This document shows, in pieces, positions 53,805 through 63,620 of a DNA stretch of 64,000 bases. This DNA is from Bacteroidota bacterium. Its GTDB lineage: Bacteria > Bacteroidota > Bacteroidia > Palsa-965. The DNA lies in assembly GCA_013298545.1 (NCBI GenBank), contig JAAFIA010000010.1, forward strand, positions 5,789 to 69,788, given 5' to 3'. Position 1 is the first letter of the stretch. The number at the start of each line of letters is the position of its first letter. The position numbers and the translations under genes were made by a program. The notes below the pieces were generated by a model. The model was not told where the DNA came from. It saw only the letters and a program-made list of their open reading frames with translations, and searched no databases.

Positions 53805-55385
53805 CTACAAATCTAGATCTTCCAATTGTCCTTGCTGAATCAACACATTCAGTTTACCGTAATCGATCTTTGAAAAATGGCGTGGGTCGCGTGGCATTTT
53901 TGCAATGAAATAAACCGCGTTGATGGCGTATGCGTAATGCAATAAAATATTTTCTTGAATCGCTTTTTTGTCGGCATGAGGCGTTGCCTCAATTACGGCA
54001 AATACATTCGTGCGTTCATGTAAAACCGTTCCTGAAACAATCCCTTCTTGTTGTGATAAAGCGTACTCTACTGCAAATGTTACGAGATAACCATCTGGAA
54101 AAGGAATGAGTGTAGAACACCGTCCGCACAAAAACAATTCTCCCGCCGTATTGAAAAATCCCGAATCGCCTGTTCGGTGCCAAACGTTTTCTCCAATAAA
54201 AATTTTTGCCAGTTTTTCGGCTTCAGGATTATCTACATAATGCCTTAACACGTGCGGGCCGCTCACCACAATTTCACCAATTTTTCCAACAGGTAAACAC
54301 GTTTGTTCCAATGCTTCTTCCGAAGCAAAAGAAAGCGGCTCGGTTGTAATGGGAAGAATTTTTACGCGTGTGAGACGATATGGAAAACCCACATTCAACC
54401 CATTGTTCGCGATGTTTTCTTCGCCAGAAAACAAGCCCTTACGTTGTTTGTCAACCAAGTCTGTTGCTGTAATACTACTGATCGGTTCGGCTTCTGTTGA
54501 TCCATAAACGATAATACTTTCGCTATTCGGAAATGCTTTTGCAAACAAACTCGCCTCGCGCGGAAACACAGGCGCGCCACCCGTAAACATCCGTCGGAAG
54601 GACACATCTATATTTTGCGCCAGCACATATTCCGCCAACCGCTGCAACACATAAGGCGATGACGTAAACCGATTGACACCCGCAGCACGAATTTGTTCTA
54701 CCAAACGTTCGGGTTTTAACGATAACGGTTTACGCGAATTGTAATCAGCGATGACTGAAGTAACACCTGTTCCTAAATTGAGCAACAACACAATTGGTAA
54801 AACAGGCATGTCGATATCCGAAGGCTGTGGTTGAATTTTATCGACCAATGCTTCAAATTGTGCTTGCAAGAAACCGTGTGTACGCTTTGCCGCTTTTGGA
54901 ATTCCTGTGCTACCTGTTGTAAATGTAATCAGTGCTAAATCATCCGCTTGCACCGTATCTGGTGTGTGTGTTGAACTAACAGGTTTGCTTTTCGGACCAA
55001 GCCAAACTGGCACACGACGCAATGCAGGCGAAAGTATAAATGCCAACGCACGAATTTTCCAAGACGCAATAAACGCCTTGCATTTGGCCAGTTTGCAACA
55101 AAGCTCTAGTCGCTCACGGCTCACCCATTCATCCAAAAAAACGGATGTTGCACCAAGGTGAAAAATAGCAAGCACAGCAATGTACAAATCCAAACTCATG
55201 GGGACGAAAACCAACACCCGATCGTTTTTCCCGATTCCTTTGGCATGATAATACGCAGCCATTTCTTTTACCGCATTCGCCAATTCGCCAAACGTAAGTT
55301 GCTTTCCATCGCGATCAATAATGGCGATGTGCTCAGGCTTTTTGAGTGCTTGTGCAAAAAATAAATCGGCGATATTGCTGCTCAT
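53805..55385 (-). CDS. Acyl-AMP/acyl-CoA ligase (ANL superfamily, OleC-like)
   Basis: ITFTTGSTGIPK, VYGSTEAEP, WHRTGD, PRDPRHFSKIDY. Confidence 0.9.
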   Translation of the reverse strand: MSSNIADLFFAQALKKPEHIAIIDRDGKQLTFGELANAVKEMAAYYHAKGIGKNDRVLVFVPMSLDLYIAVLAIFHLGATSVFLDEWVSRERLELCCKLAKCKAFIASWKIRALAFILSPALRRVPVWLGPKSKPVSSTHTPDTVQADDLALITFTTGSTGIPKAAKRTHGFLQAQFEALVDKIQPQPSDIDMPVLPIVLLLNLGTGVTSVIADYNSRKPLSLKPERLVEQIRAAGVNRFTSSPYVLQRLAEYVLAQNIDVSFRRMFTGGAPVFPREASLFAKAFPNSESIIVYGSTEAEPISSITATDLVDKQRKGLFSGEENIANNGLNVGFPYRLTRVKILPITTEPLSFASEEALEQTCLPVGKIGEIVVSGPHVLRHYVDNPEAEKLAKIFIGENVWHRTGDSGFFNTAGELFLCGRCSTLIPFPDGYLVTFAVEYALSQQEGIVSGTVLHERTNVFAVIEATPHADKKAIQENILLHYAYAINAVYFIAKMPRDPRHFSKIDYGKLNVLIQQGQLEDLDL

Positions 55386-55954
55386 TGTTCCAAGTTGCGT
55401 TTAACGTTGGCGATGTTTTGTTCAAAAACAGATTTTACTTTCCAAGCACCCAAGTGCATCTTTATCAGTTCCCAAAACGAAGGTTGGTAAGTGTCGTAAA
55501 ATAGTGTAAATGTAAGCCTACAACGTCTTCCGCCATCTAAAGACTCATAAAGTTGTTCCGTAGATAAACCATCCGATGTCATGGGGAAATTTTTCAAATC
55601 GTAAGTAATGAGTTGTCTGCGTTTGTTTGGCTCAACTTCCGTAATGGTTTCGTCCCAACGGATTCCGGTTTCATCTTTTTCTTGAAAGCAACGACGGCGA
55701 GAGCCGGGCAAACCATCGGCAATGCTATCGTTATTTAACGGTATGATGTGATCGACGTAAACAGACCATTTTCCGGCATTGGCCGAATTTCCGAGGTAAG
55801 CAAATACTTTTTCTGGCGAAGCATTGATTTCAACGGTTGCCGCAACGGCTTTGTATGGAAGATTGTCGTGCTTTTTGTACGGACTCAATCCCCAAATTGC
55901 AAAAGGGCAAATCAGTAGTAAAATCAGTAGTGCGCGAAGTAGTTTCTTTTTCAT
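55382..55954 (-). CDS. SRPBCC/START-like protein with N-terminal signal or anchor
   Basis: VEINASPEKVFAYL...WSVYV...GSRRRC...ETITEVEPN. Confidence 0.8.
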   Translation of the reverse strand: MKKKLLRALLILLLICPFAIWGLSPYKKHDNLPYKAVAATVEINASPEKVFAYLGNSANAGKWSVYVDHIIPLNNDSIADGLPGSRRRCFQEKDETGIRWDETITEVEPNKRRQLITYDLKNFPMTSDGLSTEQLYESLDGGRRCRLTFTLFYDTYQPSFWELIKMHLGAWKVKSVFEQNIANVKRNLEQ

Positions 55955-56976
55955 AACACTTTTTGAAAGAGAGCATAGCGTTTCCAGACTTCACCGGAAA
56001 ATAATTCGGATAATTTTACAGAACGATTGCGTTCGTGCATAAACGCATGAATCACCGCATCGAATTGATGTTGCTTGGCATAACGTGTAGCAAAATTGCC
56101 CATCACTTGCGGCAAACCCCGATAGCCTGGTGCCGGATGGCGAGCAACAGTTTTGATAATCAATCGTTTTTCCGAGATCGAAAAATGATCGGCAAAACAA
56201 AAAATTAAGCCCACAATTTCACCGCTACTATTTTCTGCAATCAAGGTTGTCTCGTTGTGCATGTAGGTGTTTAATCCGGCATGCTTCTCAACGAAACGCG
56301 CTTCGCTAATTCCTGAATACAAGACATTGGCTTGAAATGTGTGTGTGCAAAATTGAAAAATACGCGGCAACTCAGTTGTGTAATTTTCTCCCGCAATGGT
56401 ACGCATCCGTATGCCTTGAGTGGCTAACGATTGCTCGCGCTCCAAAATTTCTGAAGCATCGCAAACGAGTTTTCGGTCGATTGTGGTAACGTAATTTTCG
56501 CGCACCTGAAATCCGTTTGCTTGCCATTGCTCCGAAAACCAAGTCATGCAAGGTTGCTCCGAGAAATAATCGGGCAAGGCATTTCCCAAACAAAAACGAT
56601 AGCTGTCCCAAGTAGTACCATTCATAGGGCCAAGTAGGTGCGTGCAATTCAGTTCTTTGGCAATTTCCTCGGCACGATTCAGCATCAATTGTGCAGCATC
56701 GAGATCGTTGATACAACAATAATTGCCAAGCATTAAATACCGTGTATCGTTTTGGTCTAATTCAAGATTGCGGTAAAGTGCCAATACGCCGACGGTTTGC
56801 GTTTCGTCAGTAAGTGCTAGAAAACGTATTTTATGTTCAGGGTGAATGGTATTTGAACTTTTGAAAATGGCCGCTTGTTGTGGCTGAAACACCCGATCAA
56901 TGCATTGCTTCGCATGAATCAGGAAATCGGCTTCTTGATCGCGCGAAAATTCGAGCAGGTTGTATTTCGTTTCCAT
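55951..56976 (-). CDS. Tandem GNAT-fold N-acyltransferase-like protein
   Basis: LLGPMNGTTWDSYRF; IKTVARHPAPGYRGL..MG; VIHAFMH. Confidence 0.7.
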   Translation of the reverse strand: METKYNLLEFSRDQEADFLIHAKQCIDRVFQPQQAAIFKSSNTIHPEHKIRFLALTDETQTVGVLALYRNLELDQNDTRYLMLGNYCCINDLDAAQLMLNRAEEIAKELNCTHLLGPMNGTTWDSYRFCLGNALPDYFSEQPCMTWFSEQWQANGFQVRENYVTTIDRKLVCDASEILEREQSLATQGIRMRTIAGENYTTELPRIFQFCTHTFQANVLYSGISEARFVEKHAGLNTYMHNETTLIAENSSGEIVGLIFCFADHFSISEKRLIIKTVARHPAPGYRGLPQVMGNFATRYAKQHQFDAVIHAFMHERNRSVKLSELFSGEVWKRYALFQKVL

Positions 56977-62331: not shown

Positions 62332-62342
62332 GGGGATTTATG

Positions 62343-63620
62343 TTAATGTTTGCGTCCTAATTTTTTATGTGCGCTTGCAAAATGTCCGGCAGATAAAGCT
62401 GCGGCGATTGAAATTTCTCCTGCGAGGGCCAATGCGCCACAAATTTCGGCGAAGCGTCGGGCGGTGTTTGGTCCTGCACAATTCATCAGTTTCAAACATT
62501 CTTGCTGCGTAGGCAGTCCGGTGCCACCGCCGACAGTTCCAACAATTAAATTGGGAAGTGTAACGCTGGTGTATAAATCACCATTGGCATTTATTTCCAT
62601 GCGCGTAATTCCGGTAGCGGCTTCGGCAACACAGGCAACATCTTGTCCGGTTGCTAGAAAGAGTGCTGTTAATCCATTGGCGACGTGTCCCTGCGCGCCA
62701 ATGGCTCCGCTTTGAATAACGCCCATAGTTGAGGCAAGCCAATAGTCGGCCATTTTTTCGGGTGTGGTACGCAATACGTTTTTTACAAGCTCGCGTGTGA
62801 TGACACATTCTGCGGCAACTTTTTTTCCACGCACCGTTGTAAACGAAAGGGTTGTTGCTTTTTTATCGCCGGAGTAGTTGCTTTCCACATACCACGTATT
62901 GGGTTTTACAGGAGCATGTTCGATCAAATACAAACAGATGGCGTTGGTACAAAGCGTTACCATGTTTTGTCCTGCGGCATCGCCTGTATGAAAAATAAAC
63001 GTGATGATGAGGTGATTGCCTTCGACATTTGCCCGAATATCGTCGAGCTTGGCGTAACGGCTTGTTTGACCAACAATTTCTTCAATTTTTTCGCGTTGCG
63101 CATATCCCCAAACTAAAAATTGAGCAAGCTGTCCCATATCGTCGAAACAAAAAACAGGACTGCGTTGTACACCTTCGACGAGGCAAACGGATGTAATGCC
63201 GCCGCTCAAGCGCGTGGCTTTTGCGCCACGGTGATACGATGCCACCAATGCGCCTTCGCTTGTGGCAAGGGGAACGTAAACGTCTTCTTCGATGGCTGTT
63301 CCTAAAACAAAGAGTGGCCCAATGATTCCTGTTGGCACTTGTGTCATGCCAATGAAATTTTCGATGTTGCCACGTAACGAAGCAATATCATCGAAACTTG
63401 TTTTTCCGGCAAGTGTTGGCAGTGTTTTTCCAGTATGTTCTTCTAAGTAGGCAAGTCGTTTATCTTTTCCTTCGGGCGATGCGAGGTCTTCGATGGGAAA
63501 TCCATCGCGCGGTGGAATGTTGATGCTTTTGTTACGCACGCGTTCAGAAAGTTTATCGATGCCTTTGAGCATATCGATTTGTTTGAGCGCTTTTTGCACA
63601 TTGTCTCCTGATGTTGACAT
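62343..63620 (-). CDS. Class I HMG-CoA reductase-like protein
   Basis: ENFIG, VPLATSEGALVAS, TGDAAGQNM, SGDKK, GQDVA, GTVGGGT, C-terminal His. Confidence 0.9.
   Translation of the reverse strand: MSTSGDNVQKALKQIDMLKGIDKLSERVRNKSINIPPRDGFPIEDLASPEGKDKRLAYLEEHTGKTLPTLAGKTSFDDIASLRGNIENFIGMTQVPTGIIGPLFVLGTAIEEDVYVPLATSEGALVASYHRGAKATRLSGGITSVCLVEGVQRSPVFCFDDMGQLAQFLVWGYAQREKIEEIVGQTSRYAKLDDIRANVEGNHLIITFIFHTGDAAGQNMVTLCTNAICLYLIEHAPVKPNTWYVESNYSGDKKATTLSFTTVRGKKVAAECVITRELVKNVLRTTPEKMADYWLASTMGVIQSGAIGAQGHVANGLTALFLATGQDVACVAEAATGITRMEINANGDLYTSVTLPNLIVGTVGGGTGLPTQQECLKLMNCAGPNTARRFAEICGALALAGEISIAAALSAGHFASAHKKLGRKH

Follow-up and report, generated by a model that had tools for sequence, protein, structure and literature searches.

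In the phytol salvage pathway of plants and cyanobacteria, a long-chain alcohol is phosphorylated by the phytol kinase VTE5 and again by the phytyl-phosphate kinase VTE6, before it passes to the UbiA-type enzyme VTE2 or to chlorophyll synthase. A fatty acyl-CoA reductase derived from class I 3-hydroxy-3-methylglutaryl-CoA (HMG-CoA) reductase (HMGR), named FcrA, has been described from Natronomonas pharaonis and 'Candidatus Promineifilum breve' (Grossi et al., ISME J 2025, PMC11948995), Pb-FcrA having the accession CUS01882.1. According to the main text of that paper, FcrA acts on straight-chain acyl-CoA of C14 or longer and keeps all four HMGR catalytic residues, and its pocket differs from that of human HMGR in the replacement of Ser684 by Glu, of the HMG-binding Lys by a small residue and of Leu862 by a bulky one. 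FcrA was found in the context of wax-ester synthesis and is, according to its authors, often present without a wax synthase; the main text has no occurrence of Bacteroid* or of UbiA. Here, we describe an operon containing an FcrA-like reductase in a 64,000-nucleotide stretch of DNA (the window) from a Bacteroidota bacterium (GenBank assembly GCA_013298545.1, contig JAAFIA010000010.1, positions 5,789 to 69,788). Eight co-directional open reading frames on the minus strand, g1 to g8, occupy positions 53805–63620 of the window, exactly where an earlier note, made from the sequence alone, had placed them. The operon is real, widely conserved and uncharacterised, and full-text literature searches returned no publication on the gene set, in keeping with the note, which knew of no characterised pathway containing it. 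The cluster is probably a lipid pathway. From sequence, fold and gene neighbourhood we propose, with the chances about evenly balanced, that it is an accessory lipid operon organised around a fatty-alcohol-phosphate intermediate and ending in an undescribed polar membrane lipid.

The product of g1 (62343–63620, minus strand, 425 aa) has the class I HMGR fold and a strong match to Pfam HMG-CoA_red (PF00368, 2.5e-114), and lies below the equivalog cut-off of the NADPH-dependent HMGR model TIGR00533 (300.7 versus 441.8 bits). Alignment to solved HMGRs shows that the catalytic residues E87, D214, K253 and H418 are retained, as they are in 50–51 of the 51 cluster orthologues, and that E246, A296 and F414 occupy the positions of human S684, K735 and L862, 735 being the number that we take to belong to the HMG-binding lysine. 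Conservation at these pocket sites is complete across the cluster reductases, with E at the first, A, S or T at the second and F at the third in 51/51 each. Archaeal and plant HMGRs in the alignment carry Ser, Lys and Leu there, as do three of three Streptomyces plasmid HMGRs situated inside complete mevalonate operons (mvk, mvaD, pmk, fni, HMGR, HMGS). The DAMGMN motif, which the earlier note had reported as altered, reads GDAAGQN in g1. Comparison with FcrA as described in PMC11948995, where the HMG-binding lysine is printed as 795 and is taken here as that aligned to A296, reveals the same fold, the same four catalytic residues and the same three pocket substitutions, again in a genome lacking the mevalonate pathway and again with a fatty-acid CoA ligase encoded alongside.

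The genome, which is 97.35% complete in 154 contigs, holds g1 as its single HMGR-like gene. No match to HMG-CoA synthase (PF01154) or mevalonate kinase (TIGR00549) was found anywhere in it, so that an absence first remarked on for the window extends to the whole 97%-complete genome. The earlier note had also called for a check on the source of isoprenoids, and this returned IspH of the methylerythritol phosphate pathway and no other mevalonate gene. The missing pathway genes, the presence of IspH and the replaced pocket residues lead us to reject a canonical mevalonate role for g1, and the loss of the HMG-binding Ser, Lys and Leu, together with the missed TIGR00533 cut-off, sets it apart from canonical class I HMGRs. 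That the reductase acts on a non-HMG acyl-CoA, as had been suggested, is well supported by the replacement of the HMG-binding residues as in FcrA and by the lack of a mevalonate pathway: g1 does not serve the mevalonate pathway, its substrate is very probably an acyl-CoA other than HMG-CoA, and it looks like a fatty acyl-CoA reductase of the FcrA type. The description of the reductase as an orphan no longer fits its family, which was characterised in 2025 as FcrA, and that paper accounts for part of what the first reading had raised (PMC11948995). If the reductase is of the FcrA type, the donor is most likely a fatty-acid-derived alkyl chain and not an isoprenoid, so that the isoprenoid-like donor of the first reading is not upheld.

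Orphan HMGR-like genes without the canonical S/K/L residues were also seen on plasmid or chromid records (L180, L181, L182 and L186). Those of Vibrio and Photobacterium have D/M/F at the three pocket sites and that of Alteromonas, near an AMP-binding protein, has A/Y/W; a Sinorhizobium gene, likewise lacking S/K/L, lies between acyl-CoA carboxylase subunits.

Conservation of the cluster, which the earlier note had recommended checking, was analysed in 160 loci from two independent seeds, compared by tblastn with 12 query proteins. A scan of a genome collection seeded with the DUF3419 protein g4 gave 80 loci, kept out of 354 relatives, and a metagenome scan, for which a UbiA alignment was the seed, added a further 80. 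The two sets may partly share their origin, and both scans yielded close relatives alone (43–74% identity). At least two of the seven core genes are present in 155/160 loci, and in 154 of these 155 they are collinear on one strand in the order reductase, UbiA, phosphotransferase, DUF3419, kinase-like, tandem GNAT, ligase. All seven are present in 77/160, most of the misses falling at contig ends. By record title, the DUF3419-seeded loci are nearly all from Bacteroidota (Flavobacteriales, Cytophagales, Chitinophagales and Saprospiraceae), with one Kapaibacterium, and the cultured genera Dyadobacter, Rhabdobacter and Botryobacter are among the carriers. A 7.5-kb contig titled as a Synechococcus metagenome-assembled genome (L005) has a Bacteroidota-type cluster with 60–72% identity to the window proteins, and may be mis-binned. 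Within the genus, the UbiA marker occurs in 9/24 other species (8/23 without the unpublished genome G413), with the reductase adjacent in 9/9, while 14 of the 15 marker-negative congeners lack any HMGR-like gene. We conclude that the cluster genes are inherited together.

The window ends 380 bp upstream of g1, and the contig beyond it shows two genes divergent from g1 on the plus strand. The first, separated from g1 by a 257-bp intergenic region (63621–63877), encodes a CDP-alcohol phosphotransferase (PF01066, 6.1e-20); in numbering continued past the window it spans 63878–64444 (L083:667–1233), and only its first 123 nt (63878–64000) lie inside the window. The second, at 64437–65150 (L083:1226–1939), encodes a CdsA-type cytidylyltransferase (PF01148, 4.6e-36), which we call CdsA2 as the genome carries a housekeeping, better-scoring CdsA elsewhere, together with two other CDP-alcohol transferases. 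The phosphotransferase has the full D-x2-DG-x2-AR-x8-G-x3-D-x3-D signature (DILDGFLARRFGWATPLGARLDSLAD at residue 43) and reaches no NCBIfam equivalog (PgsA, 45.6 versus 109.1 bits); CdsA2 carries PGHGGFLDRFD. The pair is found in 23/160 loci, in 5 divergent and upstream as here, in 16 between g1 and g2 on the operon strand and in 2 between g3 and g4. Outside the source genome, CdsA2-type genes occur in 1/400 other genomes of a phylum sample and in 5/40 relatives, none of them away from clusters; all six in these 440 genomes are on the cluster contig, within about 2 kb of cluster genes. In five genomes where the cluster lacks the pair, the housekeeping CdsA is the only CdsA. We conclude that the functional unit reaches past 63620 to a divergent pair cut off by the window. 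The extent given earlier is correct for the eight genes, which are all in place, and falls short in missing the adjoining CDP-activation pair. The adjacency of this module indicates an alkyl-phosphate intermediate.

Two variant clusters in relatives bear on the same point. A genome of the same class but a different family, G428, has a tight operon of five genes (L187, G428:C125, 8070–12213) encoding an FcrA orthologue 66% identical to g1, a g5 orthologue (53%), a protein of the fatty-acid-desaturase family, a CDP-alcohol transferase and CdsA2, the FcrA and g5 orthologue genes overlapping by 4 bp. Searches with the window proteins by tblastn found no UbiA, g3, g4, g6 or g8 on the 16 kb of this contig examined. 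In G419, of the same genus as the source genome, a second kind of FcrA cluster (L178, G419:C401, 2197–10425) encodes a 1069-aa triple fusion, its FcrA-like domain having a P-loop kinase on one side and an APH-type kinase on the other, with a swivel-histidine phosphotransferase, a nucleotidyltransferase (NTP_transf_5), a thymidylate-kinase-like protein, an ACP-domain protein, a desaturase and an MFS transporter as neighbours. By their gene content, the two variants tie FcrA to phosphorylation of its predicted product, and that of G428 suggests that CDP activation can follow straight on from FcrA and a kinase-like protein. The CDP pair beside the operon and the five-gene variant are newly reported here. 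A 375-aa protein without a Pfam family is encoded upstream of the five-gene operon.

The remaining genes are as tightly coupled as the earlier note had described: the eight open reading frames overlap by 4 bp at five junctions (g2/g3, g3/g4, g4/g5, g6/g7 and g7/g8), and the other two junctions are gaps of 11 and 3 bp. Of the families it had assigned, six are borne out by Pfam and NCBIfam, and the phytol-kinase-like and GNAT calls are weaker than was implied. Gene g2 (61393–62331, minus strand) encodes a divergent intramembrane transferase of the UbiA superfamily (312 aa; PF01040, 40.2 bits against a cut-off of 34.2). Judged against what we take to be the canonical form of the UbiA Asp-rich motif and R/L-P-x-P-x-G loop, its motifs are D74-E75-x-K77-D78-x3-D82 and LPVPRG, both invariant in 20/20 sequences. 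It reaches no NCBIfam equivalog of the characterised UbiA subfamilies (best, 76.8 bits versus 239), and the sole solved relative given by a PDB profile search is the DGGGP synthase of Methanocaldococcus jannaschii, a weak match (E 0.056). The 867-aa product of g3 (58793–61396, minus strand) is a swivel-histidine phosphotransferase with the architecture of phosphoenolpyruvate (PEP) synthase and rifampin phosphotransferase. Pfam lists PPDK_N (1.6e-60) and PEP-utilizers (5.2e-23) and no PEP/pyruvate-binding domain; NF004881 is the closest NCBIfam model (749.9 bits, cut-off 883), and the PigC, RedH and Rph models also match, none to its equivalog cut-off. SHSAIV at residue 823 is presumably the catalytic-histidine motif. 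Gene g4 (57714–58796, minus strand, 360 aa) encodes a BtaA-like transferase dependent on S-adenosylmethionine (SAM); it is a full-length DUF3419 protein (PF11899, 1.4e-66 across residues 11–358), with VLSIASAGDN at residue 38 as the assumed SAM motif.

The polytopic membrane protein g5 (56980–57717, minus strand, 245 aa) probably belongs with the CTP-transferase/polyprenol-kinase superfamily of VTE5 and dolichol kinase. It matches CTP_transf_1 at 23.5 bits, just below the cut-off of 24, and 7/21 orthologues match at E<=0.1; its nearest Atlas cluster names, all at 0.95, are phosphatidate cytidylyltransferase, diacylglycerol/polyprenol kinase and phytol kinase. A profile search against PDB sequences gave nothing relevant. 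The structure model of g5 (predicted local distance difference test score, pLDDT, 91.6) superimposes on CdsA (4q2e) with Z 8.4 over 162 residues and a Foldseek E of 0.039, and on CarS (5guf) with Z 6.2. The PGHGGxLDRFD motif, which both CdsA genes of the genome carry, is lacking in g5, and we infer that it is of the kinase-type branch of the superfamily. For g6 (55951–56976, minus strand, 341 aa), no Pfam match was obtained at E<=0.01, and 14/21 orthologues match Acetyltransf_1 at E<=1, over residues 240–321. A model built on 21 orthologues (pLDDT 90.9) was compared by Foldseek and finds the tandem GNAT protein MAB_4324 (7q3a, 1.9e-14) and MshD (1ozp, 7.4e-13), with glucosamine N-acetyltransferase, FemX and aminoacyl-PG synthases as further fold matches. 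By its modelled fold g6 is a tandem GNAT acyltransferase of two domains, the C-terminal one appearing, from our reading of the consensus, to hold the acyl-CoA-binding loop. The SRPBCC protein g7 (55382–55954, minus strand, 190 aa; Polyketide_cyc2, PF10604, 4e-13), a hydrophobic-ligand-binding protein with a hydrophobic N-terminus, had been counted as a regular member of the operon. It is in fact optional, being present in 33/160 loci and in a few of them upstream of g1 instead. Finally, g8 (53805–55385, minus strand, 526 aa; PF00501, 4.1e-45) encodes an ANL-family fatty acid-CoA ligase with TTGSTGIPK at residue 156, and the NCBIfam model that it matches best is NF006754, 'fatty acid CoA ligase family' (327.9 bits, cut-off 478). 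The proteins g3, g4, g8, CdsA2 and the CDP-alcohol transferase all retain their catalytic signatures. All parts are in known superfamilies, and apart from the reductase signature no part reaches a characterised subfamily by its sequence scores.

The set as a whole can be set beside several described systems. It shares the logic of phytol salvage, in which a long-chain alcohol, a CTP-family membrane kinase, a second phosphorylation and a UbiA-superfamily transfer follow one another, and differs in that the operon's alcohol would come from fatty acyl-CoA and is probably not allylic, and in that the second phosphorylation would be carried out by a soluble swivel-histidine enzyme and not by a VTE6 homologue. 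Archaeal phospholipid assembly by DGGGP synthase, CarS and CDP-alcohol phosphatidyltransferases draws on the same three superfamilies that stand together in the operon locus: g2 has no solved relative other than DGGGP synthase, CarS is among the fold matches of g5, and models for archaetidylserine and archaetidylinositol-phosphate synthases match the CDP-alcohol transferase weakly. The cluster, in contrast, has no isoprenoid supply or GGGP synthase and contains a bacterial CdsA-type paralogue, and all the scores are below family cut-offs. The betaine-lipid pathway of Rhodobacter sphaeroides and algae, leading to diacylglyceryltrimethylhomoserine (DGTS), provides the family of g4 through BtaA, but no BtaB-type methyltransferase is conserved with the cluster (a methyltransferase gene at 51719–52351 of the window is found in 0/80 loci). 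A tandem GNAT stands in place of BtaB, which suggests N-acylation and not N-methylation, and the acceptor of g4 is unlikely to be plain diacylglycerol. Like rifampin phosphotransferase, flavonoid phosphate synthetase and the PigC/RedH group, g3 combines an ATP-grasp with a swivel-histidine domain and lacks a pyruvate-binding domain, although all its matches to these enzymes are below equivalog cut-offs.

From these families a pathway may be drawn. The ligase g8 would activate a long-chain fatty acid to acyl-CoA and the FcrA-type reductase g1 would reduce this with 2 NADPH to a fatty alcohol, steps suggested by family chemistry or enzymology together with the residues tested; g5 would then phosphorylate the alcohol with CTP to give an alkyl phosphate, as family and gene neighbourhood suggest. 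Two routes may lead on from there. In this genome and a minority of clusters, CdsA2 would convert the alkyl phosphate to a CDP-alkanol, which the CDP-alcohol phosphotransferase would couple to an alcohol to form an alkyl-phosphodiester lipid, again as family and neighbourhood suggest. The route of the conserved core is drawn from family chemistry: g3 would add a further phosphate, most simply giving an alkyl diphosphate; g2, on the model of phytol salvage and archaeal DGGGP synthase, would move the chain to an acceptor hydroxyl with release of diphosphate, yielding an ether-linked anchor; g4 would add a 3-amino-3-carboxypropyl (homoserine) group from SAM; and the tandem GNAT g6 would N-acylate the amine of that group. 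The optional g7 may serve as a lipid carrier. On this chemistry the product would be an amino-acid-bearing ether lipid. A broader proposal, which we regard as doubtful, is that fatty alkyl phosphate or diphosphate is a polar-lipid hub in Bacteroidota, in the role that phosphatidic acid and prenyl diphosphates have elsewhere, with the alkyl donor either CDP-activated or handled by UbiA and with ether lipids bearing an N-acylated homoserine head as products. If true, bacteria would have here a fifth way of making ether lipids, with the first UbiA enzyme to use a non-allylic donor.

A number of observations weigh against the proposed pathway. The transfer by g2 is the least secure step, since UbiA enzymes are known with allylic donors: those that have been characterised take allylic prenyl diphosphates, apart from decaprenyl-phosphate phosphoribosyltransferase, which takes phosphoribosyl pyrophosphate (PRPP). 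A saturated alkyl diphosphate cannot form a stabilised cation, and the alkyl transfer would thus be without precedent. Either the chain is 2-unsaturated, or the displacement is an unprecedented one, or the alkyl phosphate is the acceptor. Either g3 or g5 may act first, and g3 may not phosphorylate the alkyl phosphate at all. As for g5, it falls short of the Pfam threshold for CTP_transf_1, and the resemblance of its fold to CdsA is modest, given that the protein is helical. The cluster has no enzyme for handling glycerol (GGGPS, PlsC or AGPS). A PcrB/GGGPS homologue, considered as a co-inherited partner and set aside, is unlinked to the cluster and near-universal in relatives (37/41) regardless of whether they carry it, and so says nothing either way. 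Membership of g1 in the FcrA clade is at most putative: a tree of 26 HMGR-like proteins, which included no characterised FcrA, put the Streptomyces mevalonate-operon HMGRs on a long branch and left the backbone unresolved, and it carries no claim about clades here. Moreover, compared with the FcrA proteins as the main text of PMC11948995 presents them, g1 has Phe and not the Trp of the N. pharaonis enzyme at the Leu862 position, lacks their N-terminal lipid-carrier (Lad) or ACP domains, and is part of a seven-gene operon with no link to a wax synthase. Lastly, the cluster is patchy, with the UbiA marker in 6/400 other sampled genomes of the phylum, which indicates that the product is not a core membrane component.

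The difficulty over the UbiA donor would be sidestepped if g2, after the same upstream steps, loaded a phosphorylated sugar, or another polar group activated by diphosphate, onto the alkyl phosphate, as decaprenyl-phosphate phosphoribosyltransferase does, to give an alkyl-phospho-sugar lipid that g4 and g6 then decorate. Alkyl phosphate is, moreover, the intermediate best backed by the neighbourhood, through the G428 variant, and an amino-sugar head group is hinted at both by a PIG-L protein (MshB/GlcNAc-PI deacetylase-like) encoded in the cluster in 3/160 loci and by the tandem-GNAT fold that g6 has in common with MshD and glucosamine N-acetyltransferases. We nevertheless consider this unlikely: the matches of g2 include no phosphoribosyltransferase-type UbiA model of NCBIfam, its only solved relative, DGGGP synthase, is a weak match, the core has no sugar-activating enzyme, and g3 would have no obvious role on this reading. 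An allylic donor would solve the same difficulty by making the UbiA chemistry ordinary. Here, the substrate would be an isoprenoid or 2-enoic acid, for example phytol-derived, from which the operon would regenerate the allylic alcohol and go on to its diphosphate, in the manner of VTE5/VTE6 salvage. The sequence of kinase, second phosphorylation and UbiA mirrors that pathway, and the resemblance of g5 to phytol kinases in its Atlas names also points to it. Set against this are g8, which is closest to fatty-acid CoA ligases, the comparison of 160 loci with the 12 query proteins, which showed no isoprenoid enzyme in any, and the preference for straight-chain acyl-CoA of C14 or longer reported for characterised FcrA in the main text of its description (PMC11948995), so that we give it a slim chance.

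A different kind of product would fit the patchy, accessory distribution (6/400 genomes of the phylum, 9/24 in the genus), namely a diffusible or surface-active specialised metabolite for competition or signalling, such as a single-chain alkyl-phospho compound or an N-acylated O-alkyl-homoserine. The minimal G428 variant would yield a single-chain alkyl-phosphodiester, g3 also resembles the prodigiosin ligases PigC and RedH, and MFS or ABC transporters lie beside some variants. No transporter or regulator is conserved with the core, however, and four of the encoded enzymes are polytopic in the membrane, as is typical of lipid assembly, which makes a specialised metabolite an improbable outcome in our judgement. 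It is highly improbable that g1 is a genuine HMG-CoA reductase feeding an isoprenoid pathway, in spite of its strong Pfam match, or an FcrA that merely supplies wax-ester alcohols, the setting in which FcrA was discovered (PMC11948995). The first is opposed by the lack of HMG-CoA synthase and mevalonate kinase, the presence of IspH and the replaced HMG-binding residues, and the second by the failure to find WS/DGAT in the genome, a weak argument since the same search matched none of 14 control genomes; neither explains the seven conserved partner genes.

The lipid operon with a fatty-alcohol-phosphate intermediate, if this model is true, would give FcrA its main physiological context outside wax esters and would establish a new class of lipids whose biosynthetic hubs are alkyl phosphates, extending UbiA, CdsA and BtaA chemistry to new substrates. 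It would also bear on the 'lipid divide', with enzyme families of archaeal type building ether-type lipids out of the fatty chains of bacteria. A compact cluster, carriers in cultured genera and a minimal variant of five genes make the question open to direct test.

Clustering of 777 flanking and inserted open reading frames revealed none conserved beyond the cluster, save the CDP pair and two rare inserts, a PIG-L family deacetylase (MshB/BshB-like, weak) in 3/160 loci and a 123-aa protein without a family in 5/160; these inserts lie at 5196–5567 and 6559–7410 in L013 and at 1370–1741 and 2727–3584 in L005. A HipA-type kinase is inserted in an otherwise intact cluster at L062 8683–9912 (also in L039 and L075), a SpoIIE phosphatase at L070 5752–7167 and a 1009-aa NHL-repeat protein at L080 4377–7406, and in L027 a Fic-like gene lies within the cluster between the DUF3419 and kinase-like genes. 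The HipA, SpoIIE, NHL-repeat and Fic genes look like unrelated insertions.

Downstream of g8 and on the same strand, the window has a gene for a SoFic-like protein adenylyltransferase (52355–53497), present in 1/80 loci by tblastn, followed by the small class I SAM methyltransferase gene at 51719–52351 mentioned above; both are outside the cluster. A scan of 53300–54000 for promoters and terminators gave no signal usefully above shuffled sequence. The region between the ligase and Fic genes is filled by three tandem copies of a 70-nt unit (53555–53764), the later two 73% and 63% identical to the first, and includes a 16-nt inverted repeat at 53677–53709. At the other end, a 192-aa open reading frame without a family, at 63493–63999 on the plus strand and continuing to 64071, runs across both the 5' end of g1 and the first part of the CDP-alcohol transferase gene and is probably not a real gene. 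Just past CdsA2, at L083 2029–3624 (65240–66835 in the extended numbering), is a gene for a four-domain GldM protein of gliding motility and type IX secretion, which fits a Bacteroidota genome.

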